Source of the DNA: Alphaproteobacteria bacterium
Lineage (GTDB): Bacteria; Pseudomonadota; Alphaproteobacteria; Rs-D84; JAERRO01
Direction: 5' to 3'
DNA length: 64,000 nt
Assembly: GCA_016735395.1 (NCBI GenBank)
Contig: JAERRO010000006.1
Coordinates: 2,488 to 66,487, forward strand
How positions within the stretch are numbered: position 1 is the first letter of the stretch; each line of letters opens with the position of its first letter. The translations under genes were made by a program, and so were the position numbers. The notes below the pieces were generated by a model. It made no database searches and was not told where the DNA came from. It was given only the letters and a program-made list of their open reading frames with translations. Positions 15,287-56,679 of the stretch are shown here, piece by piece.

Positions 15287-15868
15287 TTACCAGTTAGTTG
15301 GCATTACTTCAAAATGTTCTTGTTTATGTTCACAAGCAGGACATACTAGAGGAGCTTCATCACCGGAGTGTTGGTATCCACAGTTGAGGCATTTCCAAGT
15401 TGTCTTTTCTCCGCCATCTTTTTTGAATACAGTTCCATCTTGAATATTTTTTCGAAAAGCTTTGAATCTCTCTTCATGATATTGTTCTGCGATAGCGATA
15501 GAGTCAAAAATTTTAGCTATATTTTCGAATCCTTCATCACGAGCGACTTTTGCAAAATCCGGGTACATAGTAGAATGTTCGTAGTTTTCTCCATCGGCAG
15601 ACCCTGCTAGATTTTCTTCAGTAGTTCCTATTGCGGGGATACTTACTCCTACTTCCATTTTAACATCACAACCGTGAGCTAGTTTAAATAACCGTTTAGC
15701 ATGTTGTTGTTCGTGTTTTGCCGTCTCTTTGAAGGCTTCAGAGATCTGTATAAACCCTTCTTTTTCGGCTACAGGAGCGAAGTACAAATATCTGTTTGAT
15801 GCCTGAGATTCACCTAGAAAAGCCTGACAGATATTTTCTAGAGTTTTTGTTCCGTTAAGTTTGTTCAT
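15287..15868 (-). CDS. rbr: Rubrerythrin
   Basis: 193 aa. It has an N-terminal ferritin-like di-iron domain (E..H motifs) and a C-terminal rubredoxin-like CLNCGY...CPAC four-Cys domain. Confidence 0.75.
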   Translation of the reverse strand: MNKLNGTKTLENICQAFLGESQASNRYLYFAPVAEKEGFIQISEAFKETAKHEQQHAKRLFKLAHGCDVKMEVGVSIPAIGTTEENLAGSADGENYEHSTMYPDFAKVARDEGFENIAKIFDSIAIAEQYHEERFKAFRKNIQDGTVFKKDGGEKTTWKCLNCGYQHSGDEAPLVCPACEHKQEHFEVMPTNW

Positions 15869-16152: not shown

Positions 16153-16653
16153 GTGCTATTTATGACTTTTAACATTTTCAATCATGAAGTAGTGATACAA
16201 GAAGTTCCGAACGAGATAAGCCTATCATTTTCAGTAGTAGGTTGTACATTAAATTGTCCAGGTTGCAGTTGGGAGGGTATTAGAAAGAATGAGCCATACG
16301 AAGAATTAACAGACAAAAAATATATAGACCTTTTAGAAAAATACAGAGGGTTGTGTAGTTGTGTTCTATTTTATGGTGGCGAGTGGCACGAGGAGAAATT
16401 AAAAGAATTTTTAATTTTAGCGAAAGATTATGACTTTAAAACTTGTCTTTATACAGGACTAGACGAGATATCTCTGTCTTTGATGAAGCACCTAGACTAC
16501 TTAAAAACAGGTCCATATATTGAGGCGATGGGAGGACTAGACTCTGCGACGACGAATCAGAAGTTTTACGATCTAACCTTAAAAAAGTCGCTTAATCACT
16601 ATTTTTTAAAAAAATCGATAGCAAAGGAAGACAAAGTTATATTTGACAGTTAA
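16153..16653 (+). CDS. nrdG: Anaerobic ribonucleotide reductase activating protein (radical SAM)
   Basis: 166 aa. A CTLNCPGC cluster (Cx3Cx2C) lies near the N-terminus, with a YGGEW motif. It is immediately upstream of nrdD. Confidence 0.65.
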   Translation: MLFMTFNIFNHEVVIQEVPNEISLSFSVVGCTLNCPGCSWEGIRKNEPYEELTDKKYIDLLEKYRGLCSCVLFYGGEWHEEKLKEFLILAKDYDFKTCLYTGLDEISLSLMKHLDYLKTGPYIEAMGGLDSATTNQKFYDLTLKKSLNHYFLKKSIAKEDKVIFDS

Positions 16654-16678: not shown

Positions 16679-18622
16679 ATGAAGAACAACAAAAAAGTTA
16701 CTATGATAAGATTGAGGGAAGATCAGTTAGAGAAAAAAGTAAATTTTATAAATAATTATATTGAGATTGATGAAAATGCTGCCGATGCTTCTGTCTTGGA
16801 TGCGAATGCCAACATCGTTTCAAAGAACTTGTCGACTTTAACTACAGAACTACATAAAGACATAAATATCCAGATAAACAGGTCCCTAATAAGTAGAACT
16901 TTGCAAGAAAAATTTGGCGATACCTATTCCAAAGAGTATATCCGTCAACTTGAGAATCACGAGATCTATACACACGATGAATCTTCGTTATCGCCGTATT
17001 GTGTGAGTATATCTATGTACCCGTTCCTATTAGGCGGTATGACAGCTCTAGGAGGGGAAGCGAAGGCTCCAAAGCATCTAGCATCTTTCACAGGATCCTT
17101 TGTTAATTTGATCTTTGCGGTCTCATCGCAGTTTGCAGGTGCGGTAGCATCTGTAGAATTTTTGATGTGTTTTGACTATTTTGCTAGAAAAGATTACGGG
17201 GACGATTATCTTAAAACTGACAAGAAAGTTATAGAAAATCAACTTCAGCATGTAGTCTATGCCCTAAACCAACCCGCCGCCGCTAGAGGCTATCAGTCGG
17301 TATTTTGGAATATATCTATATTTGATAAGTTCTACTTTAACTCTATATTTCAAGACTTTATATTTCCAGGAGATCAAAGCAGACCTAATTGGGGTTCACT
17401 ATCTAAATTGCAAGATTTCTTTATGAAATGGTTTAACGAAGAGCGGAGTAAATGTCTATTGACTTTTCCTGTTGTTACCGCCGCTATTTTGACAGAGGAT
17501 GACAAGCCTAAAGACAGTAAATTCGCAGATATGTGTTGTAAAGAAATGAGCGAAGGAAACTCGTTCTTCGTATATATGTCGGATACGGCGGACTCTTTAG
17601 CCTCTTGTTGCAGGCTTCGTAGTGAGATTGTAGATAATACATTTTCGTATTCTCTAGGAGCTGGAGGAGTATCTACAGGTAGTATAAATGTCATTACTGC
17701 AAATATAAACCGTCTTGTACAAAACTCTATATTGAGTCAGTTTAAAGAGCAGAACCCTAAATCTGAAAATCCGTTAACTTTAAAGGTCGCAGATAATTTT
17801 GAGTTATGGAAGAGCGAGGTACTAGACAAAACTGTAATCGACCATGACAAAATACAGGAAGATCTAAAAATACAGATAGAAAAGATACACAAATATCAGG
17901 TTGCGAGCCGTCATCTTTTTGAAAAGTATGAAAAGGGCGGTATGTTAACAGTCTATAATGCTGGCTATATATCATTTGAGAAACAGTTCTTGACTATAGG
18001 AGTGAACGGTTTTGTAGAGTCTGCAGAGGCTTTGGGCATTAGTCCGACGAACAATAAAGAGTATAAGAAATATTTAAACGGAATGTTGAAAGTTATATAT
18101 AATTCTAATAAGGAGGCAAAAAGTCTATACGGCTACCTCTTTAACACAGAATTCGTCCCTGCCGAGAATTTGGGTGTAAAAAATGCATCGTGGGATAAAA
18201 GAGACGGTTATTATAGTCCTAGAGATTGTTATAATTCTTATATGTATGTTGTAGAAAACGAATATACTGATCTGGTAGATAAGTTTGTTTTACACGGCAA
18301 AGAGATAGTAAAATACCTAGATGGTGGGAGTGCTTTACATCTAAATCTTGGAGAATACCCTACTCAAGAGTCGTATCGAAAACTTTTTAATATATCTGCA
18401 AAGACTGGGTGTAATTATTTTACTACGAATGTAAAGATTACTATCTGCGAACAGTGTAATAATATAGACAAGCGGACTCTAGACAGTTGTCCTAAATGCA
18501 GTTCTACTAACCTATCGTGGGCTACGAGGGTTATAGGATATTTAAAGAAGGTTTCATCATTCAGTTCTAAAAGGCAGTGTGAAGAGAGCGATCGCGATTA
18601 TGCTGGGTGCAACAACCTATAG
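16679..18622 (+). CDS. nrdD: Anaerobic (class III) ribonucleoside-triphosphate reductase
   Basis: 647 aa. The C-terminal Zn-ribbon CEQC...CPKC is followed by the glycyl-radical motif TRVIGYL. A palindrome ctatagat-ttt-atctatag overlaps the stop codon. Confidence 0.7.
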   Translation: MKNNKKVTMIRLREDQLEKKVNFINNYIEIDENAADASVLDANANIVSKNLSTLTTELHKDINIQINRSLISRTLQEKFGDTYSKEYIRQLENHEIYTHDESSLSPYCVSISMYPFLLGGMTALGGEAKAPKHLASFTGSFVNLIFAVSSQFAGAVASVEFLMCFDYFARKDYGDDYLKTDKKVIENQLQHVVYALNQPAAARGYQSVFWNISIFDKFYFNSIFQDFIFPGDQSRPNWGSLSKLQDFFMKWFNEERSKCLLTFPVVTAAILTEDDKPKDSKFADMCCKEMSEGNSFFVYMSDTADSLASCCRLRSEIVDNTFSYSLGAGGVSTGSINVITANINRLVQNSILSQFKEQNPKSENPLTLKVADNFELWKSEVLDKTVIDHDKIQEDLKIQIEKIHKYQVASRHLFEKYEKGGMLTVYNAGYISFEKQFLTIGVNGFVESAEALGISPTNNKEYKKYLNGMLKVIYNSNKEAKSLYGYLFNTEFVPAENLGVKNASWDKRDGYYSPRDCYNSYMYVVENEYTDLVDKFVLHGKEIVKYLDGGSALHLNLGEYPTQESYRKLFNISAKTGCNYFTTNVKITICEQCNNIDKRTLDSCPKCSSTNLSWATRVIGYLKKVSSFSSKRQCEESDRDYAGCNNL

Positions 18623-19973: not shown

Positions 19974-20846
19974 TCAAAACATATAATGTTTTGCCTCGAA
20001 AGTTTTTTGAGCATTAATCTGGTTCAGAAAATTATCGACTTCCTCTGCCGCTTCGTTAATTAAAGTCAAAGAGCTAGTCGTCCTCAAAATGTACGGAGAT
20101 GCTTTAGTACTTCCTGTAAGCCAATAGTTGTCTCCACTGTTTGGCGGTCCATATTTTTGTTCTGCACTTTGCCAAAAATTAAATATTTTAAGTTTTCTTT
20201 GATACTCAAATTTTTCACCGAGTCCGTCAGTGTCTCCCGCATCATTAGTATAGACAATTTTCCAAACTTTAGAGTTCGCTAAAGGACTAGTAAAATGCAA
20301 CTCGATAGTCTCGGCAGTCTCATTCCTCTTTAGAAAAAGAACTTTTTGATAGAGCCAGTTATTCTGTTGTGCGACTCTGTGTATACATTTAGAAATTTCC
20401 GACGGGACGGTCAAAGATTGTCTACATACATAGTCTAAATTATATCTGTAAAATCTATGCATTTCTTGTTCTGACTTTTTTGAGATATCTATCCCGAATC
20501 TGATATTTTTATTTTTCAAAAAAGATTGCACGAGTTCTTTCGACATACCTAGAACGAATCCCGAGACATCTAGCATACCTTCATCTAAAAACTCTTTTTC
20601 TTGATTGAGTTCTTGAGATAACATTGTAGAAGTAATTTTGGAAATCTCATTTTGAGTTATGTCTGCGATATGGTTTGTTGAGTTCTCTGTATTTTTCCTA
20701 TCGATATTTTTGTCGATATTAAATTTAGGGAGACCTTTCGAATTAGCCTGTATAGTTAAAAAAGGGCAAATCAAAAGAACAAACAATATATAGATAATTT
20801 TATTAAACATACATAAACTATATAATAAAAGAGAAGACAATAACAA
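19974..20846 (-). CDS. Hypothetical secreted protein
   Basis: 290-aa ORF whose N-terminal hydrophobic signal peptide is ...ILFVLLICPFLTIQANS. No recognisable domain. Confidence 0.5.
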   Translation of the reverse strand: MLLSSLLLYSLCMFNKIIYILFVLLICPFLTIQANSKGLPKFNIDKNIDRKNTENSTNHIADITQNEISKITSTMLSQELNQEKEFLDEGMLDVSGFVLGMSKELVQSFLKNKNIRFGIDISKKSEQEMHRFYRYNLDYVCRQSLTVPSEISKCIHRVAQQNNWLYQKVLFLKRNETAETIELHFTSPLANSKVWKIVYTNDAGDTDGLGEKFEYQRKLKIFNFWQSAEQKYGPPNSGDNYWLTGSTKASPYILRTTSSLTLINEAAEEVDNFLNQINAQKTFEAKHYMF

Positions 20847-20855
20847 GTAAAAGTT

Positions 20856-21371
20856 CTATAGTATTTTTCTGCTATCTAGAATAAATTTATATGCTTCTAC
20901 TATTCCTGCGAAGAACTTTTTATCTATATCTTTATTTTTGTCTGGATGATATTTTTTGACTAATTTTAAATATTCTTTTTTTATATTTTCTAGTTCACAA
21001 TCTTGTTCTATCTTAAAAATATTGTGAGCTATTTCTAGAGTTTCTGTATAAATAGATCTGACTGTCTTAACCTTTTTATTTTTAAAAAAGAGAAATTGTT
21101 CTATATTTTCTTCTACAGATCTATTAGATTTTGCCGACGATTTCAGTGGCAACCCTACCTTGAGTTCAAAGTCTATCGCCTCTATTTCTTTATCCGACAA
21201 ACCTTTATAATAGTTCCAAGATTTATTATATTCTTTTACATGTTTCAAGCAAAAGTACCAGTGATCCTTCAGCCCTCTATTTTTTGGCGCCTTAAATTCT
21301 CCTGCATTAGAACATTTCATTGCATCGCATCTTCTACGAAAATCCGGTCTTTTTGTCATTTTTTTGATCAT
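20856..21371 (-). CDS. J-domain (DnaJ-like) protein with an N-terminal Cys/His cluster
   Basis: A C-terminal J-domain has the HPD motif (KKYHPDKNKD). The N-terminus reads CDAMKCSNAG...HWYFCLKHVKEYN, suggesting a zinc-binding module. Confidence 0.55.
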   Translation of the reverse strand: MIKKMTKRPDFRRRCDAMKCSNAGEFKAPKNRGLKDHWYFCLKHVKEYNKSWNYYKGLSDKEIEAIDFELKVGLPLKSSAKSNRSVEENIEQFLFFKNKKVKTVRSIYTETLEIAHNIFKIEQDCELENIKKEYLKLVKKYHPDKNKDIDKKFFAGIVEAYKFILDSRKIL

Positions 21372-22246
21372 TTTGAACTACTATTGTTATTTTTTATCAT
21401 AGGATGTTTTAAAAGTTGTTTATGTAATTCAGAATTTTCTAGATGAGTATAAATTTGTGTAGTCGAGATATTTTGGTGTCCTAGAAAAGCCTGAATTGTT
21501 TCCAGTTGCACACCGCCTGCGAGCAAATGAGTAGCGATAGAATGTCGTAAAATGTGAGGTGAAACTTTAGAGCTAGTCCACCCTAAATCAGGGGCAATCC
21601 TTTTTACCATTTTAAAAAAACCACCTCTAGTTAAATGTCCACTTGAAGAATTACTAGGAAATAAAAACGGTGATTTTGCCCATTTTTTATCTTTAGATAA
21701 ATCTTCGATCCACCTATCGACAATTTCTTTTACAGTTTTTGTAATAGGGATAATCCGTTCTTTGTTCCCCTTTCCTAATACAAAAATAGAATCTTTACCT
21801 ACATTATTTTTTTTCAACGAGACTAATTCGGAGACTCTCAATCCTGTATAATAGATCAACTTCATCATCGTTATAGCTCTTATATTATCGTCTAATTTAG
21901 TTAACTTTTTGATATCATTTTCTGAAATTACTTTAGGAAGTCTGTTATAACTTTTGGTCTTACAAGAGTCTAGATCAGGAATTTTCTTTATCAATTGTTC
22001 GGAGAATAAAAACTGCAGATATTGTTTTAGGGCAGAAATTTTTCTTTGTTGAGATGTCATATTAAATTTTTGCAAGAAAGATTGATACTCAAGAAATTCG
22101 TCTACAGAGACTTCTTCTATTTTTTTATTAACAAATTGAGCTAACTGAAACAGATCACTTCTATATGCATTGATAGTATTTTTAGACACTCCTCTTTCTG
22201 CGAGCATCATATCAAAAAAAGTTTCGTAGATAAATTTATTAGTCAT
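21368..22246 (-). CDS. xerD: Site-specific tyrosine recombinase XerD
   Basis: 292 aa. The N-terminal SAM-like domain (ERGVSKNTINAYRSDL) and the catalytic tail HILRHSIATHLL...TQIYTHL are both typical of XerC/D. Confidence 0.8.
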   Translation of the reverse strand: MTNKFIYETFFDMMLAERGVSKNTINAYRSDLFQLAQFVNKKIEEVSVDEFLEYQSFLQKFNMTSQQRKISALKQYLQFLFSEQLIKKIPDLDSCKTKSYNRLPKVISENDIKKLTKLDDNIRAITMMKLIYYTGLRVSELVSLKKNNVGKDSIFVLGKGNKERIIPITKTVKEIVDRWIEDLSKDKKWAKSPFLFPSNSSSGHLTRGGFFKMVKRIAPDLGWTSSKVSPHILRHSIATHLLAGGVQLETIQAFLGHQNISTTQIYTHLENSELHKQLLKHPMIKNNNSSSK

Positions 22247-22412: not shown

Positions 22413-22793
22413 TTATACTCCATCTAGCATTCTTAAATATCCGCTAGCTCCAGAGGCACCTTCTTGAGGCACAAAAATTTCTACAACATAAGACGATAAA
22501 AACAGTAATAGGAATCCGATCATTATCCAAAATATCTGTTCCATACTTATCGGAGCTTTTCCATCTTCGGCTTTTCCTGTTAAATTATTTTTGATAAGAT
22601 TGTATCCTATTTTAAAGAACAGTAATCCCGCTGCTATAAATATCAAAATTCTAATGGTCGTCAAAACCCCTGCAATTCTACCAGTAATTTCACCTAGAGC
22701 TTGCCCACTTGATGCTGGAAGGTCTATTGCGAAGACGAGTAAAACGAGAAAAATTCCTAGATGTATCATTACTGGTTTAAATTTATTAGTCAT
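22413..22793 (-). CDS. VirB2/TrbC-like (type IV secretion pilin-like) membrane protein
   Basis: 126 aa. A signal peptide is followed by a short hydrophilic stretch, a TM segment, a charged loop (KNNLTGKAEDGKAP), a second TM segment and a short tail. This architecture is typical of T4SS pilin subunits. The call is by architecture only. Confidence 0.3.
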   Translation of the reverse strand: MTNKFKPVMIHLGIFLVLLVFAIDLPASSGQALGEITGRIAGVLTTIRILIFIAAGLLFFKIGYNLIKNNLTGKAEDGKAPISMEQIFWIMIGFLLLFLSSYVVEIFVPQEGASGASGYLRMLDGV

Positions 22794-31515: not shown

Positions 31516-32121
31516 TTATGATGTCTTTATCAATTTCAATTTTATCACTTTCGTAATTTTGGTTAGAGAATATTGAATAGTCCAGGTATCTATAAATTCT
31601 ATATCTTTATCTGTTGGTTTATCATTTTTGATGGGACTTTGAAGAGAGTAAAAGATCAATTGAAAAGTACTATTTTCACGATCGACGGAATTTATTTTAA
31701 TTTTAGAGAGACTCTTGAGTTTTGTTTTAGGCGGATTATTTGACAGGGTTAAAAAAACTGTAGGGCTTACTATCCGTCTAATCCTCAAGAGGTTTTGACT
31801 CTGGAAATTAGAAACTATATTGTAGAAGAAATTTGCAAAACATTTTCCAAAGGTTTCTGATTCAAATTTTTTGGGGTAAACAGTTTTCGCAAAATCTATA
31901 ATTAGATCGAAGTCTATAGCAAATTCAACGGTATTATTATTTTTATCTAAAAAAGTGATAGCATCACCCACAGACTTTTTAATACCAATTTCTTTACCAT
32001 CGTCTTGTGATTTATTGAAATTTTTGACTGGATCGATATCCTGTTTCATTTTAAAGAAACTAAAGGCTAGCGATATAATGACGAGAGTCATAATTATAGA
32101 GGTAATAAAACTAAAATCCAT
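31516..32121 (-). CDS. Hypothetical membrane-anchored protein, possibly with a Tim44-like domain
   Basis: 201 aa. An N-terminal TM helix is followed by a soluble domain. No firm motif. Confidence 0.4.
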   Translation of the reverse strand: MDFSFITSIIMTLVIISLAFSFFKMKQDIDPVKNFNKSQDDGKEIGIKKSVGDAITFLDKNNNTVEFAIDFDLIIDFAKTVYPKKFESETFGKCFANFFYNIVSNFQSQNLLRIRRIVSPTVFLTLSNNPPKTKLKSLSKIKINSVDRENSTFQLIFYSLQSPIKNDKPTDKDIEFIDTWTIQYSLTKITKVIKLKLIKTS

Positions 32122-35572: not shown

Positions 35573-36535
35573 CTAGAAAGTATATCTGTATCCGAGGAAG
35601 GTAGACCAAAGCATATTTGTGGGAATGGATAATAGTATTCTATCACTAGTACTACTTGAAGCTCCGTAGTCTATACTACCTATATAGACACCTTTAATTC
35701 CTGCCTCAATTTTAGATCTTTCTGTCGAGTGATATGTAAACCCCGTCGTTAGAGCTGCCGCCATACTCCGTTGTACAATACCTTCTGACATATATGACTC
35801 ACAAATTGAAAGTCCAGGAGCTCCAGACCACTTTGTACAGAAGGCATCGAGACCTACGATACTAGTCGTTTCTCCATTTCTATCGTTGAGTTCCATTCTA
35901 CTTTCATTTATAGCATACCCTACACCGGCTCCTATAAATGGAACTATAGATCCGTTTTGAATATAAGAAGATTTTTGAAAATCGTAGTAGATCATAGCTA
36001 ACATAACATCACTAGTCAGTTTAGCATTATATGCTGTAGAAACGGAAAGTCCTACGATCAGGTTGGAATCTTCAGGAGGGGTCTGTTGTCCGCTAAGTAG
36101 TTCATCACTAGAAAATCGCATATTAGAAAAATGATCCCAAGCTAGTTCTGCTCTCCAGTTCGACTCTTTTAGTCTAGTTCCAAATGCTATAGAAAAGAAA
36201 CTTCCTAACCGTTGTTCTGGTTTAATGGCATCAAGTTTACCATAATCGAATGTCAAAAGTGTATTAGTAGCAGTTCCACCGGGGTATAAATAAGAGTATG
36301 TATCGTCGATAGAGTTATAATCATAGGTACTTTGAGTCATTCCGACTTTATTATCTATACTTTCGATTATCATCCCGGACAGACCACCTCTAATAGCTAT
36401 ATAGGTAGACTCATGTCCTGACTTTTCCTCTTCGGCCCAATTCCATGAGGCTTGCAACGGTAGAGTCAGAAGACAAGACATAGATAAAATTAAAAATCTT
36501 TTTAACATAAAAAAGTCCTTTACATATATTGACAA
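35573..36535 (-). CDS. Outer-membrane beta-barrel protein
   Basis: A signal peptide is followed by alternating amphipathic beta-strand patterns. It ends with the terminal aromatic ...YRYTF. Confidence 0.4.
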   Translation of the reverse strand: MSIYVKDFFMLKRFLILSMSCLLTLPLQASWNWAEEEKSGHESTYIAIRGGLSGMIIESIDNKVGMTQSTYDYNSIDDTYSYLYPGGTATNTLLTFDYGKLDAIKPEQRLGSFFSIAFGTRLKESNWRAELAWDHFSNMRFSSDELLSGQQTPPEDSNLIVGLSVSTAYNAKLTSDVMLAMIYYDFQKSSYIQNGSIVPFIGAGVGYAINESRMELNDRNGETTSIVGLDAFCTKWSGAPGLSICESYMSEGIVQRSMAAALTTGFTYHSTERSKIEAGIKGVYIGSIDYGASSSTSDRILLSIPTNMLWSTFLGYRYTF

Positions 36536-36610: not shown

Positions 36611-38797
36611 ATTACAGCTAATAAGTTAAACAAAAGTCAGTCAAAATCTGTTTTACTAGGAGACGGTCCCTCTCTAATTTTGGCAGGGGCTGGCACGGGA
36701 AAAACGACGGTACTAATAAACAGGCTTCGTCATCTAATAGAAGACCGAGACATTGCCGGCTATCGTCTTGTTGCGATGACATTTACGAATAAAGCATCTT
36801 TAGAGATGAAAGACAGACTGTTTAATATGGTAGGAGAAGAAAAAGGCAAAACTGTTCAACTAGGAACATTTCACGGGTTATGTTGGAGGTGGATAATAGG
36901 ATATAGAATTAAAAAGAACCTATCAAAATGCATATTGATAGACGACAACGAGCAGTTGAAGTTGGTCAAGGAGATAGTCCGCCCTGACAACAAGGACAAA
37001 TTGATAGATTACAAAGAAGTTTTAGAAAGCATACAGAGGTTTAAAGACAACCTTTACGATATACAAAATTTACCTACTGACTTTAAAGATCCATCTTTCG
37101 GCAATTTTAAAACTATCTATCTATCGTATCAGTCTAAATTGAAAGAGTTAAACGGGCTAGACTTTGGCGACATCTTATTATATATGTTAAAAATTTTAGA
37201 GGAGGATAAAGAATACGGAAGCTATATGCGGAACCGATTTCACAGTATACTAGTGGACGAGTTTCAAGACACAAATAGATCGCAGTATAAATTGATAAGG
37301 TGTTTAACGAAACCGCCGTATAATTTGTTTTGTGTTGGCGATGACGATCAGTTGATATATCAGTGGCGGGGGGCTAACATAGATAATATCAGAGGTCTCC
37401 CTAAAGAGTTCAAAGAATTAACGACTATAAAGTTGGAAGAAAATTACAGATCTACTCCTAATATATTGGGGACGGCGAACCGAGTAATATGTAATAACAA
37501 AAACAGATTTGAGAAAAAATTATATGCAAGCGGTTATAAAGGTAAAATCTGCTCCAAGGTTATGGAGAACAGATCATCGGATCTAAATTACGAGTCTTCT
37601 ATAGGTGATGTAATACATCGACAGTTAGACAATGACTATGACGAAGCTCACCATATAGTCCAAGATATAGTGAATGCGATAAAAAATGGTTATAGCTACT
37701 CCCAAATAGCGATATTGATAAGGTCGTCTACGATCGGATCAAAAATAGAAGAAAAGCTACATTTATTTTCTATACCTTTCAGGGTCGTAGGAGGCAAGAA
37801 ATTTTTTGAATATAAGGATATCCAAGACTTAATATCTTACATAAAAATATCTCACAGTCCGACTCACAATTTGGCATTATCTCGTAGTCTACAAACACCC
37901 AAAAGAGGTTGCGGTACTGCATATCTAGAAAAATTAAAGCAAATATCTTATGAAGACGGGACTACATTGTTAGAGTCTATACCTAAAGCTGGAAAAAGAC
38001 CGAAGGCGGTAGAATATTATGAGATGATAAAATCGTTTAACGAAATCTCTTCTTCCGTCGGTTTATGTGGGAGTGCGGGAGAAAGTTCTGAAACTCTAAC
38101 TCTACCTATATTTATCAGAAATTTATATGAAGCCAGCGGATTAAAAAACATAATAGATAACTCTACGGAGAACAGGGAAAGTCGTCAAGGCAGAATAGAA
38201 AGTTTTATAGACTTATCTAACCGTTTTAACAATCTAGACACATTTTTAGATTATCTTACATTAGTGAGCGGTATCGATTCTGCAGATGATGTAGACGGAA
38301 GAGTATCGTTAATGACGATACATTCGTCGAAAGGTCTAGAATTCGACATAGTATTTTTAGCGGGGCTTGAAGAGGGGATATTACCTACATTTAATTCTAT
38401 AAACGACGGCGGAGATAAGTTAGAGGAAGAGCGGAGGATAACTTATGTCGGGATAACGAGAGCGAAAAAAAAGTTAGTTCTTTCTTGTTGTCGAGAGAGA
38501 TTTGTACACGGCAAAGTCGTCCGAAATGCTCCTAGCAGATTTTATATAGAGAGTTTACCGCCTATTGTGTCATTAACTGATACCAATATAAAAAAGCCAA
38601 AAAAACAGAAAAAACACCGTAATTTTAATAAATTGGAGAAATCTTTAACTACGGAGAATAGTCTACAGGGCAAAATTATAAAACATAAATCTTTTGGGAC
38701 AGGAGTAGTAATAAAAGAGGACGAAAGCGATCTATTGACGGTAGCATTTAAAAATGGTGTAGTTAAGAAAATAGAGAAAAACGAAATACAAAATTAG
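36611..38797 (+). CDS. uvrD: ATP-dependent DNA helicase UvrD/PcrA family. The ORF track starts at TTG 36680, but the conserved N-terminus lies upstream.
   Basis: Motifs GAGTGKT (Ia), DEFQDTN (II) and the Q-motif region are present, with a C-terminal Tudor-like tail (KHKSFGTGVVIKEDE). Upstream of 36680 the frame stays open to 36611 (ITANKLNKSQSKSVLLGDGPSLILAGAGTGKT) with no ATG/GTG/TTG. Confidence 0.8.
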   Translation: MTANKLNKSQSKSVLLGDGPSLILAGAGTGKTTVLINRLRHLIEDRDIAGYRLVAMTFTNKASLEMKDRLFNMVGEEKGKTVQLGTFHGLCWRWIIGYRIKKNLSKCILIDDNEQLKLVKEIVRPDNKDKLIDYKEVLESIQRFKDNLYDIQNLPTDFKDPSFGNFKTIYLSYQSKLKELNGLDFGDILLYMLKILEEDKEYGSYMRNRFHSILVDEFQDTNRSQYKLIRCLTKPPYNLFCVGDDDQLIYQWRGANIDNIRGLPKEFKELTTIKLEENYRSTPNILGTANRVICNNKNRFEKKLYASGYKGKICSKVMENRSSDLNYESSIGDVIHRQLDNDYDEAHHIVQDIVNAIKNGYSYSQIAILIRSSTIGSKIEEKLHLFSIPFRVVGGKKFFEYKDIQDLISYIKISHSPTHNLALSRSLQTPKRGCGTAYLEKLKQISYEDGTTLLESIPKAGKRPKAVEYYEMIKSFNEISSSVGLCGSAGESSETLTLPIFIRNLYEASGLKNIIDNSTENRESRQGRIESFIDLSNRFNNLDTFLDYLTLVSGIDSADDVDGRVSLMTIHSSKGLEFDIVFLAGLEEGILPTFNSINDGGDKLEEERRITYVGITRAKKKLVLSCCRERFVHGKVVRNAPSRFYIESLPPIVSLTDTNIKKPKKQKKHRNFNKLEKSLTTENSLQGKIIKHKSFGTGVVIKEDESDLLTVAFKNGVVKKIEKNEIQN

Positions 38798-38828: not shown

Positions 38829-38902
38829 TGGTTGCCCCGCCTAGATTCGAACTAAGATTAATGGAACCAAAATCCACGGTTCTACCATTGAACTACGGGG
38901 CA
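38829..38902 (-). tRNA. tRNA-Gln (anticodon TTG)
   Basis: The reverse complement reads TGCCCCGTAGTTCAATGGTAGAACCGTGGATTTTGGTTCCATTAATCTTAGTTCGAATCTAGGCGGGGCAACCA. The acceptor stem pairs, the T-loop is TTCGAAT, and the anticodon loop is TTTTGGT. Confidence 0.75.
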
Positions 38903-39045
38903 AAGTTAGTTAAAAGAAGATTCAACTTTTTTTATTATATCTAATTGACAGAAAAAGTCTATAGTAAATTAAAACTTTTTGTAAAAATCGGTTGCACTTT
39001 AGAATGTAATTATATAGTCTTTACTCAACTAGGAGTTTATTTAAA

Positions 39046-40092
39046 ATGAGAGAATTTAATTTACAAACTGAAGGTCTTGCTATGAAAGAGAGGCATCGTT
39101 ATCAGCTATATATATTATGTCCTAAAGAAATTAAATTTTCAAATTCAGTTTATCTATCGCCGTATATATCGTATTTTCCAGATTACATTCACGGAGACAA
39201 GATAGTTCAGATTGAAGGTGAGGCTAGTCAGTTAATAGCGGTTATCCGTATGGTAGAACTTAAAACGGGAAATATTATAGAGTATGTATCGAATTTATAT
39301 TTTAAAGACGAAGACATTTTTCAAGGGCCTTGGGTATCTGTATCCGTGGTAAAAACAGAGACTCACTTTCAGATATTGCCAAAAATAGTACCTGTATCAC
39401 GAGGTCGACTAAATATCAGTTTAGACTACCCTGAAGAAAAATGTAAATTGTATGGAGGTCAAAGAATTGATGAAGACGAATACGAGTTAGACATTTATAA
39501 GTTGGACAAGATATTTATAAAGACAAAAAATTCTTATATGACTTTCCCCGAAGATTTATCTATATCTTTGAATGTATCACAGAACGGCTATACTTCTATT
39601 TTTCCATTTGCGATAGGGGTGTTAAGTCAGTTATCTTTTTTTATGCATATATGTTATACAAAGTTGGAAGTCGACTTTATGTTATCAGAACGGGTTAGTA
39701 ATATTGACGAGGTTAAAGGGATATCGGTGTATCTACCTGACGGGCTTATGATTAGCGGATTACCTATTGACAGGGACAGGAGAGTTATAATAAGTTCTAA
39801 ACGACTATTGAAGCCTATATTTTTCAACAATTACAAACCTTTCGGCAAAAATTCGTTTACTATTAAATATGATATAGAGTATATAAACGGTGTTGAGAAA
39901 AAGGGCAAAGGAGAAAATACAGTATCCACAAACAATCAATTTCATCTAGATCTGAAGTTTCCTAGTCCTATAGAAAACTCCGGAGATCTACAGTTGTGCG
40001 AAGATTGTGGTATAGTTAAAAACAAATCTTATATGAGCGGTTTAGACAGTGTTTTACACATAGAAAAACTATTTACGACTATTCAAATTTAG
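39046..40092 (+). CDS. Hypothetical cytoplasmic protein (orphan)
   Basis: 348-aa ORF with no signal peptide, no TM segment and no recognisable motif. It sits between tRNA-Gln and convergent lolD. Confidence 0.5.
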   Translation: MREFNLQTEGLAMKERHRYQLYILCPKEIKFSNSVYLSPYISYFPDYIHGDKIVQIEGEASQLIAVIRMVELKTGNIIEYVSNLYFKDEDIFQGPWVSVSVVKTETHFQILPKIVPVSRGRLNISLDYPEEKCKLYGGQRIDEDEYELDIYKLDKIFIKTKNSYMTFPEDLSISLNVSQNGYTSIFPFAIGVLSQLSFFMHICYTKLEVDFMLSERVSNIDEVKGISVYLPDGLMISGLPIDRDRRVIISSKRLLKPIFFNNYKPFGKNSFTIKYDIEYINGVEKKGKGENTVSTNNQFHLDLKFPSPIENSGDLQLCEDCGIVKNKSYMSGLDSVLHIEKLFTTIQI

Positions 40093-40099
40093 AGAAAAA

Positions 40100-40765
40100 T
40101 TATTCTACAATAACAATTCTATCTGCTTGATCGGATAGCATAACATCGTGGGTGGCTATAATAAGGGTAGCCCCGAATTGTTTAGAAATTTTTTTCAGTA
40201 GTTTAAAAATTATGACGGCATTATCTTTATCGAGATTTCCGGTAGGTTCATCTGCCAAAACTATGGCGGGCTTATGCACTAGAGCCCTACAAATAGCTAC
40301 TCTCTGTTGTTCTCCTCCGGATATTTGATTCGGATATTTATTTATCATTTTAGAAAGTCCTACAGTCCGTAGTATCTTATCTGCCTCTTTTATAGCTTTA
40401 GTCTTATTGACACCTATAATTTGTAGAGGCATCATAACATTTTCTAGAACCGTTAGATCCTGCAGTAAATAGTGCGATTGAAATACGAAGCCGAAGTATT
40501 TTTTTCTTATGAGAGTCTGAGCTTTGATAGAAAGATTAGAAATACACTTACCTTTAAAGAAGACACTTCCCGAAGTCGGTTTATCTAGCATTCCTAGAAG
40601 GTGCAGTAAAGTCGATTTACCAGAGCCGGATCTACCGACAAGAGCTATAAATTCTTTACGAAACACATTGAGTTTAAAATTTTGAAAAACTTGAGTATAG
40701 TTATTTTTGTCATCGTAGGAAAAAGAGAGATTATCTACAGAAATTATCACATTATTATTTGTCAT
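40100..40765 (-). CDS. lolD: Lipoprotein-releasing system ATP-binding protein
   Basis: Walker A GRSGSGKST, the ABC signature LSGGEQQR and Walker B LADEPT are present. It is immediately downstream of lolC/E. Confidence 0.7.
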   Translation of the reverse strand: MTNNNVIISVDNLSFSYDDKNNYTQVFQNFKLNVFRKEFIALVGRSGSGKSTLLHLLGMLDKPTSGSVFFKGKCISNLSIKAQTLIRKKYFGFVFQSHYLLQDLTVLENVMMPLQIIGVNKTKAIKEADKILRTVGLSKMINKYPNQISGGEQQRVAICRALVHKPAIVLADEPTGNLDKDNAVIIFKLLKKISKQFGATLIIATHDVMLSDQADRIVIVE

Positions 40766-42006
40766 ATATTGTCTCTAATGGCCTGAATTGGCTTAATTTT
40801 GGTTGCTCTATGAGTTGGGTATAATGTTGCTAGGAAAGATAGAGTTAAAGAGATGGAGACGATTAAAATTATGGTATCGAGTTGAACTACAGCGGGAAGT
40901 TCAGCGAGATTATAAATCTGCGGATCGAAAAGATTTATATTAGTTATCTTCTGAACAAATTGCCTAATAGGTTCTACGAAGACGGAAATCGTGATACCTA
41001 TAATGGTTCCAAAAATAGTTCCAAAAACGGCTATAATCATACCCATAAAAAGAAATATTCTTCTAATAGAATTTAGTCCCATACCTAGAGTCATCAGCAC
41101 CGCGATATCTTTAGCTTTGTCTTTAACGAGCATAGTTAAAGAAGCTACTATATTGAATACAGCTACGATGACTATCATAAGCAGAATTACAAACATCACT
41201 TGAGTTTCTATAGCTAGAGCATTCATAAGAGAAGCATTTATCTGTTGCCAGTCATATACTGCAAATTTATTAGAAATAATTTTATAGAGCAAAGGTTTAG
41301 CTTTAGAAATATCGTTAGGATCGAACAGAAAAATATCGAGTTGTGTAACGGAGTCTTCTATATTAAAAAATTGCATAGCATTCTTCAAACTCATAAAAAC
41401 TAGAGAGGAATCAAATTCGAACATACCAAGTGAGAAGACCGAAGAGATATCAAAATTCTTAATAACGGGCATCTGTCCGAAGGCGGTCTGTTCTCCATTA
41501 GGAGACAAAATAGTCATTTTAGTATTATGATCTTGATTCATTCTATTAAAAAGTTGAGATCCTATAGCGATACCTTCGTCGAAATTTTTAAAATTTGTTG
41601 TCCATTTAGAACTTTGCATAATGTCATTAAAATTATCTTGACTCACTCCTCTAATGATGATTCCGGCATTATTGTTGTCTGCAACGACGAGACCTTGTCC
41701 TTGAATAATAGGTACTACAGTTTTAATATATTGTTTTAGATCTGTATCTGTTTCTAAAGTTTTTACGAGAGGTTCGAAGTCGGCGATGTTAGCTCCAGGA
41801 ACAGATATAGTTATATGTCCATTTATACCGAGTATTCTATTTATCAGTGTATTGTGAAAACCTGTCATGACGGAGGTTACGACAATAAGAGTTGCTACTC
41901 CTATAGTTATACCTAGAAAAGACATAACGGTAATAAGAGAGACAAATTGATCTTTTGCTCTCGACCGCAAAAATTTCATAGCAATTTTAATTTCAAGTTT
42001 TATCAT
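40762..42006 (-). CDS. lolC: Lipoprotein-releasing system permease LolC/E
   Basis: 414 aa with MacB/FtsX-like topology: TM1, a large periplasmic domain, then 3 TM segments. It overlaps lolD by 4 nt. Confidence 0.7.
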   Translation of the reverse strand: MIKLEIKIAMKFLRSRAKDQFVSLITVMSFLGITIGVATLIVVTSVMTGFHNTLINRILGINGHITISVPGANIADFEPLVKTLETDTDLKQYIKTVVPIIQGQGLVVADNNNAGIIIRGVSQDNFNDIMQSSKWTTNFKNFDEGIAIGSQLFNRMNQDHNTKMTILSPNGEQTAFGQMPVIKNFDISSVFSLGMFEFDSSLVFMSLKNAMQFFNIEDSVTQLDIFLFDPNDISKAKPLLYKIISNKFAVYDWQQINASLMNALAIETQVMFVILLMIVIVAVFNIVASLTMLVKDKAKDIAVLMTLGMGLNSIRRIFLFMGMIIAVFGTIFGTIIGITISVFVEPIRQFVQKITNINLFDPQIYNLAELPAVVQLDTIILIVSISLTLSFLATLYPTHRATKIKPIQAIRDNI

Positions 42007-42890: not shown

Positions 42891-44051
42891 TTGACAATGG
42901 CAATAAAACATCAAACAATTATAGACAATAAAGAGCAATTTATTAAAGATAATAATAATGCGGGATATAAGAATTTATCGATGAACCTTAATTCTATGGC
43001 ACTTGAGTCTTTTAACAGAGTAATTGATTCAGGTTTAGAATCTGCAGACACATATAACGGCATCGGATTTGTATATAGAAAAGAAGGCAATAACGAAGAT
43101 GCCCTTGACAACTTTAACAAAGCGATAGAACTAGATACAAAACTTTCGTATATATACAACAACCGTGGAGCTATATATATGAGAATAGGAGAGTATAAGT
43201 TAGCTCTTAAAGATTTTGATAAGGCTATAAATTTAACCCCTAAATCTCCTAGAGCCTATAATAATAAGGGTATAATGCATATATATAAAAAGAATTACAA
43301 ATTAGCCCTTAAACTTTTTAGCGAGGTTATAAAATTGAGTCGGAGTCTTATAGAAGCTAATGAAAATAGTTATAGAAGTAGGTTAGTAGAGATGGGGATC
43401 GATAAAGATGTGTTATCTTCTGGAGGTTTCGAGAGTGAGGAGCATAGGTTAGCCTTAATAACATCAAATGGGAGATTTTATCAGTTGAGGAGTAAACTTG
43501 TCGAAGCCCATTATAACCGAGGGCTTACACATATGAGAAACGGCAACTATAAATCAGCCTTTAAAGATTTTAACAAGGCCGTAAAATCTAGTCCATTTTT
43601 CAAAGAAGCCCTTTATAACCGTGGATTAGCGAGTATGAAGAATAACAAACCTAAACTAGCACTCAAAGATTTTAATGAAGGTATAATGATGAATTCTAGT
43701 TTCGAGCCGGCTCTTCACGGTCGTGGAATGATACATATGTTAATGGGCAGATACAGTTTAGCTTCTAAAGATTTTGAAAAGTTTATAGAGGTTAGTTCTA
43801 AAGATAATGAGTACCGCTATAATAATGGATTGTTTCATAGATCTCATGATGATAATGGCTTAACAGATCTATATTTCGATGACAATATAAAATATATTCG
43901 CGATTATTTGTCTGACAATAGAGTTAAAACTTTTAAAGGTAAAAAATTAAATAAAGACGAGATTATAATAGGATTGGAGAAGATGAGAAAAGAGTTAAAT
44001 CAAATTAAAAAGAAAACAGCAGGTTATCCAAAAGATTACCGAGAAATGTAG
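42891..44051 (+). CDS. Tetratricopeptide-repeat protein
   Basis: 386 aa with at least 8 canonical TPR units (A..F.KAI.L.P....AYNNRG). Confidence 0.7.
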   Translation: MTMAIKHQTIIDNKEQFIKDNNNAGYKNLSMNLNSMALESFNRVIDSGLESADTYNGIGFVYRKEGNNEDALDNFNKAIELDTKLSYIYNNRGAIYMRIGEYKLALKDFDKAINLTPKSPRAYNNKGIMHIYKKNYKLALKLFSEVIKLSRSLIEANENSYRSRLVEMGIDKDVLSSGGFESEEHRLALITSNGRFYQLRSKLVEAHYNRGLTHMRNGNYKSAFKDFNKAVKSSPFFKEALYNRGLASMKNNKPKLALKDFNEGIMMNSSFEPALHGRGMIHMLMGRYSLASKDFEKFIEVSSKDNEYRYNNGLFHRSHDDNGLTDLYFDDNIKYIRDYLSDNRVKTFKGKKLNKDEIIIGLEKMRKELNQIKKKTAGYPKDYREM

Positions 44052-44183
44052 TCCTCTCCAAAGTCGGCTATCGGATCTACATATAGATTAAAAAATATTG
44101 ACAAACTAAAGCACAAGTCAAACTCTTGACAACGAGTGATTAACTGTTATCATAAGGCATTAAACAAATGTTAGGAGAGTAAA

Positions 44184-44918
44184 ATGATAAAAAGTTCGGA
44201 GTTAAGTGAGAGTCTTGCGGTTTATAATAACCTTGGAGATATACACAAGATAAAAAACAATCATCTATTAGCTATTAAGGCTTATTCATTATCGATTCTA
44301 AAGAATCCGTCAAATAGCAAATCATATTATAATCGAGGGATGGTATATATGAAGAGAGGGGACTATAATTTAGCTATTAGCAACTTTACTACGGCTATAG
44401 ATCTAAACGATCAGTTTGTAGAAGCTTATAATAATCGCGGTTTACTGTATAAAAAGGACGGAGATTATATCTTGGCTATTAAAGATTTTACTAAAGCTAT
44501 TGAGGTAGATCATACATATAGCAAATCCTACTATAACCGTGGTAATTCTTATACAGAATTAGACAAAGAAGAATTGGCACTTAAAGATTTTACTAGAGCC
44601 ATAGAGATAGACCATACATATAGCAATGCTTATAACAGTCGCGGAAAAATTCTAATGAAGTCTAACCAATACGACTTAGCGATTGTCGAGTTTAACAGAG
44701 CGATAGAAATCGATCCCAAAAACGGTGAATTTTATAATAACCGCGGGGTATGTCATAGATCTGAAGACAATTACGGTTTAGCGAAAAACGATTTTGCTAA
44801 AGCCGTCGATTTAGATAATAACATTGAGTCCTATTCTAATATGATTTCGGTATCAAAGGATATAGAGTCCATCAAAAGAAAACCTATAACATATAGAGAC
44901 CTTTATTTAGAAAGGTAA
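44184..44918 (+). CDS. Tetratricopeptide-repeat protein
   Basis: 244 aa with 6 TPR units (YNNRG..Y...GDY..AI.DFTKAIE.D). It has its own TTGACA-16-TATCAT promoter-like element and an AGGAGAG SD. Confidence 0.7.
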
Positions 44919-46577: not shown

Positions 46578-48218
46578 ATGAGAGAGACTATTTTACAAAG
46601 AACATTATTTTTATTAACGGCGGTATTTTTATCTAGTTGTTCTGTATCCCATAATAGTTCTTTAGAATCTTATGCCGTTAAAGGTCTGTACAAAAATGCG
46701 GAATACCCGGATATCTCTGTAAAAAGGGATAGCAAATTCGAGGGTATCACCGTAGACCTATATCTACCGAAAAGAGACACAAAATATAAAGATTACAGGG
46801 ACATAATAAGTCTATATTCGTTATATAACCCTAGTAAAATGAGAGTAAATTTTTATAACATAGAAGAATTAGAGGACAAAATAGAAGGCATTTTATCATT
46901 GGAAGTTTTACCTAACGAGAATGTTTTACCTAACGAGGCAGTTTTATCTAACGAAAATGTTATAATGGTTGGAGGCGACATTATATCTACAAAAAAAGCG
47001 AAGAGATTACAAGAATTAGGATATATTTTAGTACACCTAGATGGTTGGGAGACTCCGTCTGAATATAGTTATAGCAGTCAAGTTAGCGAGGTATCGAGGG
47101 TATTTAGTTTAATGTCTAGTATAAAAGATGCAGATAAATTGATAGTTATAGGTCCTAAAAAAGAAATTTCCCGCGAGATATCGACTATTGTTGATGAAAC
47201 AGATAAACAGTTAGTCAGCTATTTTAGTTATGAGAGTGGTGATAGTGAAAGTATAAAAGAGGTAGTGAAACAAAGCACCTATTATGAAGACAGGGTAGAG
47301 AATAAAAACAAATTATTGATTGCCTTAAATATGATAGACGAAGAACTTTTACCGGTAGAGGTGAAAGAAGAAGATACAGAAGAAATGGTTATAGATACAG
47401 AGTTATCTAAAGAGTTGTCAGTTCTAGAAGATACAGATACCGAAGTACCAAATTTTACACAAGAAGATCTATCGGAGAGTAAAAAAATAATAGACACCTA
47501 CAATGCTCTAGGTCAAGTCCCGTATGACGGAGTTTTGTTATTCGGAGACGAAACGGATATATTGATGTTAATCTCATATCTAAAATATTATGACAGTGGT
47601 AGTTTAGAGAAACCGTTAAAAATTATGGTAGGATCTTCGATCGACACAAACAAAATAGATCCTTCTTTACAGGGCATCTATATTTCGAAGCAGGACACAT
47701 TCTTATCTAATAGAGTCGGCTCTTTTTTCGGTGTAGATAAAACAGAAAACAATGTCTCATTTTACCATCTATTAGAATGTCTAAATAGTTTAAAAGGCGG
47801 AGAATTATTTTGTAATGTCGGCGGTTATAGCACGATATTTTCGTCTCATTATAACCTAGAGGATCTAACTACTTACAGAATACTTAATCGTCGATTGTCT
47901 CGTATAGACTCAAGTGAAGTCTCTTCTAGATTAAAATTGAGTAAAAAGCATATAGACTATGACTTATCATATTCGGAATTACATTTGATAGATATATTAC
48001 ACAGCACTAGTCTATCTAACGATTGGAAAACAGAGTTAGAAAAATTATTATCTGATATAGAAGAAATCGATTTAGGTTATGTAGAAATAGAGAGCGAAGA
48101 GATAGAACTAGAAGGCGGGCTATTAGATATATTTCAAATTGAAGATGTCGACAGCAATATAGAACTAGAAAGATTGGATGTCGTAGAGATAGAGGAACCT
48201 CTAAAAAAAGAAGAATAA
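46578..48218 (+). CDS. Hypothetical lipoprotein with internal tandem repeats and an acidic C-terminal tail
   Basis: 546 aa with lipobox LSSC. Three 18-nt tandem repeats at 46905..46958 encode VLPNEN/VLPNEA/VLSNEN. The central region resembles a periplasmic-binding/LpoA-like fold. The C-terminal ~60 aa are rich in Glu/Asp/Ile/Leu. Confidence 0.5.
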   Translation: MRETILQRTLFLLTAVFLSSCSVSHNSSLESYAVKGLYKNAEYPDISVKRDSKFEGITVDLYLPKRDTKYKDYRDIISLYSLYNPSKMRVNFYNIEELEDKIEGILSLEVLPNENVLPNEAVLSNENVIMVGGDIISTKKAKRLQELGYILVHLDGWETPSEYSYSSQVSEVSRVFSLMSSIKDADKLIVIGPKKEISREISTIVDETDKQLVSYFSYESGDSESIKEVVKQSTYYEDRVENKNKLLIALNMIDEELLPVEVKEEDTEEMVIDTELSKELSVLEDTDTEVPNFTQEDLSESKKIIDTYNALGQVPYDGVLLFGDETDILMLISYLKYYDSGSLEKPLKIMVGSSIDTNKIDPSLQGIYISKQDTFLSNRVGSFFGVDKTENNVSFYHLLECLNSLKGGELFCNVGGYSTIFSSHYNLEDLTTYRILNRRLSRIDSSEVSSRLKLSKKHIDYDLSYSELHLIDILHSTSLSNDWKTELEKLLSDIEEIDLGYVEIESEEIELEGGLLDIFQIEDVDSNIELERLDVVEIEEPLKKEE

Positions 48219-56157: not shown

Positions 56158-56679
56158 ATGTTAAATTTATCAAAATTCAAATTACTTTTGGTTTGTATTT
56201 TGCCGTTGGTATATGGGACTAAATCTCATTCTACTGATATCCCTAGCAATCCGATAGAATGGTCATGTGTTATTCCTGAAGACAAGGACACACCTTGTCA
56301 TAAAGTATTAGAAGGCACATATAACACTTATAATGATATGATTTATTATGAGATAAATATAAAAACTATAAGAGATGACAAACTTTATAGAGAGGTTGTT
56401 AAAAACTTTTTTGTTCGTCAAGGTTGGAATTCTGAAAGTTTTAAATGTATGGGCGGAACTATTGTAAAGAATGGAGAAGGCAAAGAGATATCTAACGATG
56501 TATTGTCTATATCTCACGATAACGGCAAAGCTTGTAAACAGTTAGAGATAAAAATGTTTACCAAGATGGACAGAGCTATTGACGGTGCGAAGAATGCAAG
56601 GAACAGAGACAGAAATGTTAAACAACCGTTCTATTTTATTCCCAAGCTAGAATCGTCTGAGAAGTATATGGAAAGATAA
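56158..56679 (+). CDS. Hypothetical secreted Cys-containing protein
   Basis: 173 aa with a signal peptide (LLLVCILPLVYG) and 6 Cys. A promoter-like TTGACA-N16-TACAAA lies upstream, and a strong terminator follows. Confidence 0.5.
   Translation: MLNLSKFKLLLVCILPLVYGTKSHSTDIPSNPIEWSCVIPEDKDTPCHKVLEGTYNTYNDMIYYEINIKTIRDDKLYREVVKNFFVRQGWNSESFKCMGGTIVKNGEGKEISNDVLSISHDNGKACKQLEIKMFTKMDRAIDGAKNARNRDRNVKQPFYFIPKLESSEKYMER

Follow-up and report, generated by a model that had tools for sequence, protein, structure and literature searches.

The open reading frame (ORF) JJV93_00940, located between a tRNA-Gln gene and lolD in the 64-kb stretch of DNA analyzed here (referred to below as the window), is best read as a native, vertically inherited gene that has diverged rapidly in an isolated lineage and whose product would be intracellular. 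A probability of roughly 0.55 is assigned to this reading as a whole. With high probability the ORF is a genuine coding gene. The protein is an orphan, the gene has the composition of its surroundings, the hallmarks of a genomic island are absent from its flanks, and the conserved proteins of the same genome are themselves remote from their nearest sampled relatives. In the scheme proposed, the host would be an AT-rich, gene-dense and phylogenetically isolated alphaproteobacterium carrying anaerobe markers (NrdD/NrdG and rubrerythrin). The ORF would be transcribed alone, from a 143-nt region shared divergently with tRNA-Gln, and its translation would begin at the ATG at 39046, behind an AGGAG motif. 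The product is predicted to be an acidic 40-kDa protein devoid of Sec or lipoprotein signal, probably laid out as an N-terminal half, a hydrophobic segment at residues 185-203 (either buried or borderline-membrane) and a beta-rich C-terminal half. Its role may be that of an intracellular, lineage-specific accessory protein rather than that of a secreted effector.

Singleton hypothetical proteins are abundant in the MAGs of divergent lineages, and this ORF, taken alone, matters little and points to no particular mechanism. The useful outcome of the analysis is a negative one: adjacency to a tRNA gene and missing homologs do not make the ORF an island or an effector.

Gene structure and genomic setting

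The interval 38903-40092 is composed of the 143-nt intergenic region followed by the ORF, 38903 being the first base past tRNA-Gln. The features of the locus are collected in Table 1. The placement of a 348-aa ORF between tRNA-Gln and a convergent lolD, as described in the earlier note, was borne out to the nucleotide, including the exact gap of 7 nt between the two stop codons. tRNA-Gln has its 5' end (38902) on the side of the ORF and its 3' end (38829) on the side of uvrD, the stop codon of which is 31 nt away. The product of the ORF is named 'MAG: hypothetical protein JJV93_00940 [Alphaproteobacteria bacterium]' at the NCBI. The sole database entry for this protein belongs to assembly GCA_016735385.1 (contig JAERRM010000032.1), and the protein is also found in sequencing run SRR13427717.

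Table 1. Coordinates of the features of the ORF locus, numbered from the first base of the window.
Feature	Position	Strand	Remarks
Orphan ORF JJV93_00940	39046-40092	+	348 aa, ATG start, TAG stop, 40.2 kDa, pI 5.8, monocistronic
tRNA-Gln (anticodon UUG; ttg)	38829-38902	-	ARAGORN; Rfam RF00005, 62.4 bits
Divergent intergenic region, 143 nt	38903-39045	+	Between tRNA-Gln and the ORF
Shine-Dalgarno AGGAG	39031-39035	+	10 nt before the ATG of the ORF
Exact TTGACA	38945-38950		Upstream of the ORF; no acceptable -10 hexamer at 16-18 nt
Weak promoter-like site	38910-38938		Within the 143-nt intergenic region
Hydrophobic segment, codons 185-203 (IFPFAIGVLSQLSFFMHIC)	39598-39654	+	Kyte-Doolittle 19-residue mean 1.71
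C-terminal ~144 residues, probably all-beta	39658-40089	+	Two low-confidence AF2 runs
Stop-to-stop spacer of the ORF and convergent lolD, 7 nt	40093-40099		No terminator
lolD (ABC ATPase)	40100-40765	-	Convergent with the ORF; overlaps lolC/E
lolC/E	40762-42006	-	Overlaps lolD

The gene had also been credited with promoter-like TTGACA elements upstream. This description stands for one exact copy of the hexamer, but that copy is the only one, it is not accompanied by a suitable -10 hexamer, and its occurrence is at the frequency expected by chance. TTGACA was counted 36 times in the window versus 29.3 +/- 5.4 expected, and the promoter-like sites of the region (12 observed versus 7.6 +/- 3.2 expected) are likewise at chance rate. 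In the 5' leader no RNA structure was predicted (fold z-score of +1.5, less stable than the shuffled sequences) and no Rfam match was obtained. No terminator-like hairpin was found in the short spacer between the ORF and lolD (window 40090-40102), and a 3' overlap of the two transcripts is probable. Because it is convergent with the ORF, lolD is not a functional partner, and lolD and lolC/E are to be considered as its context. The neighborhood of a monocistronic gene, divergent from a tRNA gene and convergent with lolD, offers the ORF no guilt by association.

Orphan status and isolation of the lineage

The protein was described as an orphan from the outset, and no homolog of it was retrieved from any of the collections searched. 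When compared to 5.8 billion protein clusters, it matched only itself, at E<=0.001 as well as at E<=10, and 1.84 billion cluster representatives scanned exhaustively with HMMER returned the same single protein. At E<=10, zero families were obtained from Pfam and NCBIfam and nothing from the PADLOC profiles, while PHROGs gave only two chance-level matches limited to short stretches (E of 0.15 and 0.29). Clear homology to a housekeeping family was not found in the Pfam, NCBIfam and protein-database searches. Metagenome and viral contigs, scanned with back-translated patterns, gave no match to the ORF, and neither did tblastn searches of plasmids and phages at E<=1. Paralogs were sought by phmmer and blastp in six-frame translations of the window and of the loci of its relatives, and none was found; a search for internal repeats gave a best off-diagonal score of 40, equal to the null maximum. 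The best PDB sequence match, mitoribosomal bS18m (E of 0.097), was taken as chance and rejected as a relative of the ORF. The lack of any match even at E<=10 is unusual for a protein of 348 aa, as most diverged housekeeping proteins of the same window still match Pfam. Judged on these searches, the ORF appears to be a single-copy, taxonomically restricted ('ORFan') gene.

No Pfam match was obtained for 7 of the 55 window ORFs of at least 100 aa, the ORF under study included, and the orphan is therefore one of a class and not an exception. The six others are located at 19974-20846, 22413-22793, 31516-32121, 35573-36535, 46578-48218 and 56158-56679. The fourth of these, of 320 aa, displays a signal-peptide-like N-terminus and an aromatic C-terminus (...YRYTF) typical of outer-membrane beta-barrels.

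The isolation of the lineage was gauged from the Lol proteins encoded next to the ORF. The best non-self match of LolCE in the whole database has an identity of 41% and a score of 358 bits, versus 869 bits for the self-comparison, and LolD is 38-41% identical to the LolD proteins of the same nearest relatives. When 185,579 species genomes were scanned with LolCE, no close relative was found, the only hit being a Nitratifractor locus of 24% identity. By this measure the source genome is extremely isolated phylogenetically, and the orphan status of the ORF tracks this isolation.

Homology-detection failure has been put forward as an explanation of taxonomically restricted genes (Weisman, Murray & Eddy 2020, PMC7660931), and a back-of-envelope calculation was performed in the same spirit, as a plausibility calculation and not as a test. 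Against the nearest sampled relative, LolCE still reaches 41% of its self-score. For the ORF protein the self-score is 780 bits, and in this rough estimate its matches would drop below a detection limit of ~28 bits if the score decayed ~3.8 times faster than that of LolCE. A ratio of this size would be well within the ordinary variation of rates between proteins, and detection failure or unsampled relatives would therefore be sufficient as an explanation. Orphanhood would thus be most simply explained by the isolation of the lineage together with fast divergence, or by relatives that have not been sampled. On this account the orphan status calls for no recent import.

The ORF resembles the ORFans of divergent or host-associated bacteria in having no detectable homolog, a native composition and a location amid conserved core genes, in a lineage the conserved proteins of which are only ~40% identical to those of their nearest relatives. 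It differs from ORFans explained by detection failure in that its divergence rate is measurable only with a sister genome, so that such a failure is plausible only. Should relatives of this lineage be sequenced, the ORF would become a test case for distinguishing detection failure from true novelty.

Predicted protein and competing explanations

The protein is rich in Ile, Lys and Ser and poor in Ala (1.1%), a composition that fits an AT-rich genome, and contains a single CxxC motif (C318, C321). Its N-terminus (MREFNLQTEGLAMKERHRYQLYILCP) displays neither a hydrophobic h-region nor a lipobox, in agreement with the absence of a signal peptide recorded in the earlier note. Residues 185-203 form the only strongly hydrophobic segment, of borderline hydropathy, and would correspond either to a borderline transmembrane helix or to a buried element of the core. 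The initial statement that the protein has no transmembrane segment is consequently sound for the remainder of the sequence, where no other strongly hydrophobic segment occurs, but too strong for these 19 residues. The cytoplasmic location claimed at the same time has the missing N-terminal hydrophobic region as its only basis. A role of the protein as a component of the Lol pathway or as one of its lipoprotein substrates was considered and rejected: the N-terminus is devoid of an h-region, the YIL-C sequence is no lipobox, and the gene is convergent with lolD.

AlphaFold2 (AF2), run without an alignment, gave pLDDT values of 29.2 for the full-length protein and of 37.1 for residues 205-348. 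Strands 226-229, 235-239 and 271-280 are common to both runs and the others agree within 1-5 residues, a hint that the C-terminal half may fold as an all-beta domain. A Foldseek comparison of the 205-348 model with the PDB produced a best match with an E of 0.48 and a TM of 0.20, which is meaningless.

A comparison of strains was also available. Compared with the NCBI contig over 21,047 positions (29046-50092), the window shows 36 differences (0.17%). Since the NCBI alleles are also present on a 3.4-kb contig of the same sequencing run, two strains co-occur. Of these single-nucleotide differences, 19 are synonymous, 16 non-synonymous and one intergenic. The corresponding pN/pS of ~0.3, a rough estimate of our own, indicates purifying selection across the 21 kb. 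The ORF (1047 nt) shows no difference where ~1.8 would be expected, a deficit that is not significant (P ~0.17). By comparison, non-synonymous and synonymous differences number three and one in the second TPR gene (244 aa) and four and one in the 201-aa ORF without Pfam match. The identity of the ORF in both strains is the opposite of what is predicted for a fast-evolving effector or for a decaying ORF, and weighs weakly against both. Elsewhere in the region, three adjacent SNPs (46920-46922) recode codon 115 of the 546-aa ORF without Pfam match.

The most tenable of the alternatives, although unlikely, is that the protein is a secreted, host-directed effector or a surface or host-interaction factor of an obligate symbiont, exported independently of Sec (by a T4SS or T1SS) and evolving fast under host pressure. 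In its favor, the protein is an orphan devoid of Sec signal, the genome looks like that of a symbiont (long branches, GC of ~33-35%, 90.6% coding), and a tandem pair of TPR proteins is encoded 2.8 kb away. However, no eukaryote-like or known effector domain is present, the ORF does not vary between the two strains as the TPR gene and the 201-aa ORF do, and the symbiotic lifestyle is itself only deduced. Neither of the effector signs envisaged in the earlier note was recovered. Eukaryotic-like motifs are not supported by any domain in Pfam at E<=10. The last 20 residues (YMSGLDSVLHIEKLFTTIQI) have a net charge of -1 and do not form the basic tail or E-block of a T4SS signal, this being a crude test as such signals are poorly defined in this group. 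Genes for secretion systems number 0 among the 55 ORFs of the window. The expression 'lineage-specific effector' can therefore be retained for its first half, no homolog having been detected in any collection searched, but its second half has found no positive evidence. The protein is comparable to the secreted effectors of intracellular Alphaproteobacteria, such as the T4SS substrates of the Rickettsiales, in being an orphan of medium size without Sec signal. It differs from them by the lack of a eukaryote-like domain, of a basic C-terminal tail and of elevated strain-level variation, and by the absence of secretion machinery in the window. The gene content of the 64-kb window nevertheless leaves room for a non-classical secretion route. 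The tandem TPR-repeat proteins themselves, of 386 and 244 aa (window 42891-44918), are better candidates for host interaction than the ORF.

It is likewise unlikely, and somewhat more so, that the protein is the first of a new family and has a new fold, kept by selection in an anaerobic and probably host-associated lineage, where it might act as a non-classically exported host-interaction factor or as a novel nucleic-acid enzyme.

The possibility that the ORF is spurious or non-functional, either as a decaying gene remnant or as a young de novo ORF without selected function, was confronted with the coding evidence. With a stop codon frequency of 0.075 per codon, a stop-to-stop run of 360 sense codons would arise by chance with P ~6e-13. 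The codon usage was then evaluated with a model of leave-one-out log-odds built on the other 54 long ORFs of the window. In frame, the ORF scores 0.170 bits per codon, and the highest score among the five alternative frames is -0.449. Given this length beyond chance, the frame-specific codon signal and the AGGAG motif 10 nt before the ATG, the ORF is with high probability a genuine protein-coding gene. The lack of homologs, the failure of AF2 to yield a confident fold and a codon score in the lower fifth of the window genes (7th lowest of 55, z of about -1) could be taken in favor of a non-functional ORF. However, a low pLDDT is to be expected of any single-sequence prediction, signs of pseudogenes are few in this compact genome (90.6% coding), and the sequence is intact and identical in two strains. 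A non-functional ORF is therefore improbable.

More doubtful still is a highly diverged nuclease of the PD-(D/E)xK fold, involved in repair or restriction-like, in the N-terminal half of the protein, with D46 and E71-x-K73 as catalytic residues. The proposal arises from residues 45-73, where SYFPD(46)YIHG ... VIRMVE(71)LK(73) resembles the signature of the superfamily, a PD followed 24 residues later by a hydrophobic-ExK motif, and from the proximity of a UvrD-type helicase gene. Members of this superfamily are known to diverge past sequence detection. The motif was nevertheless found post hoc and is compatible with chance, its strict pattern being present in 4% of the shuffles of the ORF sequence and a looser one in 15%. 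Furthermore, the ORF differs from the superfamily in having no profile match, as no HMM of any family matched at E<=10. No methyltransferase gene is found in the neighborhood, the ORF is not co-transcribed with uvrD, from which it is separated by a tRNA gene on the opposite strand, and the AF2 model is unusable for fold recognition (pLDDT of 29).

The question of a native or imported gene was addressed by composition, gene content and synteny. The GC content of the ORF (0.32-0.34) is equal to that of its flanks, and its GC1/GC2/GC3 values of 0.41/0.29/0.29 are typical of the window. Ranked by tetranucleotide distance to the mean of the window, it falls at the 16th percentile among segments of the same size, nearer to the average than most of the window. 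The surrounding genes are mostly core genes: rpoBC, rplKAJL, nusG, nrdDG, ftsK, lptF/G, greA, tsaE, lolA, mltA, ileS, uvrD, lolCD, cvpA, mlaEF, dnaX, tyrS, lepA, clpPX, truB, pnp, frr, uppS, fabZ and lpxA. The exceptions are the two TPR-repeat proteins and some ORFs lacking a Pfam match.

Integrases target the 3' end of tRNA genes, and integrated elements lie 3' of the tRNA. The ORF is on the opposite, 5' side of tRNA-Gln. No credible tRNA-derived direct (att-like) repeat flanks it, the sole repeat family overlapping tRNA-Gln being made of chance-level copies inside lolC (16/20 matching) and uvrD (15/20). No integrase or mobile-element gene was found within ~17 kb of the ORF, whose immediate neighbors are uvrD, lolD, lolCE and cvpA. 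The single tyrosine recombinase of the window, which is XerC/D-like, is encoded 17 kb from the ORF (21368-22246).

What comes after lolD in the three nearest relatives by LolCE (41% identity) is MurJ, a DUF805 protein or an unrelated 241-aa ORF. tRNA-Gln was present in none of the three loci fetched, and tRNA-Gly and tRNA-Tyr are found ~1.5 kb past lolD in one of them. As these nearest relatives are too distant, synteny does not settle the question of an insertion. The ORF shares with tRNA-linked genomic islands its direct adjacency to a tRNA gene, but it is on the wrong side of that gene, is a single gene of 1 kb, and comes without integrase, direct repeats or compositional shift. The acquisition at a tRNA hotspot suggested in the earlier note, in the form of cargo recently inserted at tRNA-Gln, is very improbable and close to refuted on the available tests: the tRNA adjacency and the missing homologs that speak for it are outweighed by the orientation of the tRNA, the absence of att-like repeats and of a nearby integrase, native codon, GC and tetranucleotide measures, and the lack of any match in plasmids, phages and viral contigs.

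Further observations on the genome

The window encodes several proteins that are anaerobe markers in an alphaproteobacterium, namely a rubrerythrin (15287-15868), an NrdG-like radical-SAM activase (16153-16653) and the NrdD anaerobic ribonucleotide reductase (16679-18622). These markers, together with the low GC content, the high coding density and very long branches, suggest that the lineage is anaerobic and possibly host-associated.

Finally, the probable start of the UvrD/PcrA-like helicase gene next to tRNA-Gln is a non-canonical ATT codon (36611). Were translation to begin at the first canonical start, the TTG at 36680 used in public gene calls, the Walker A motif (AGAGTGKT) would fall at residue 3. 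A Q-motif-like LNKSQSKSV sequence is encoded in frame upstream of this TTG, and the ATT codon directly follows a TAA stop, with a GGAGG motif 6 nt upstream.
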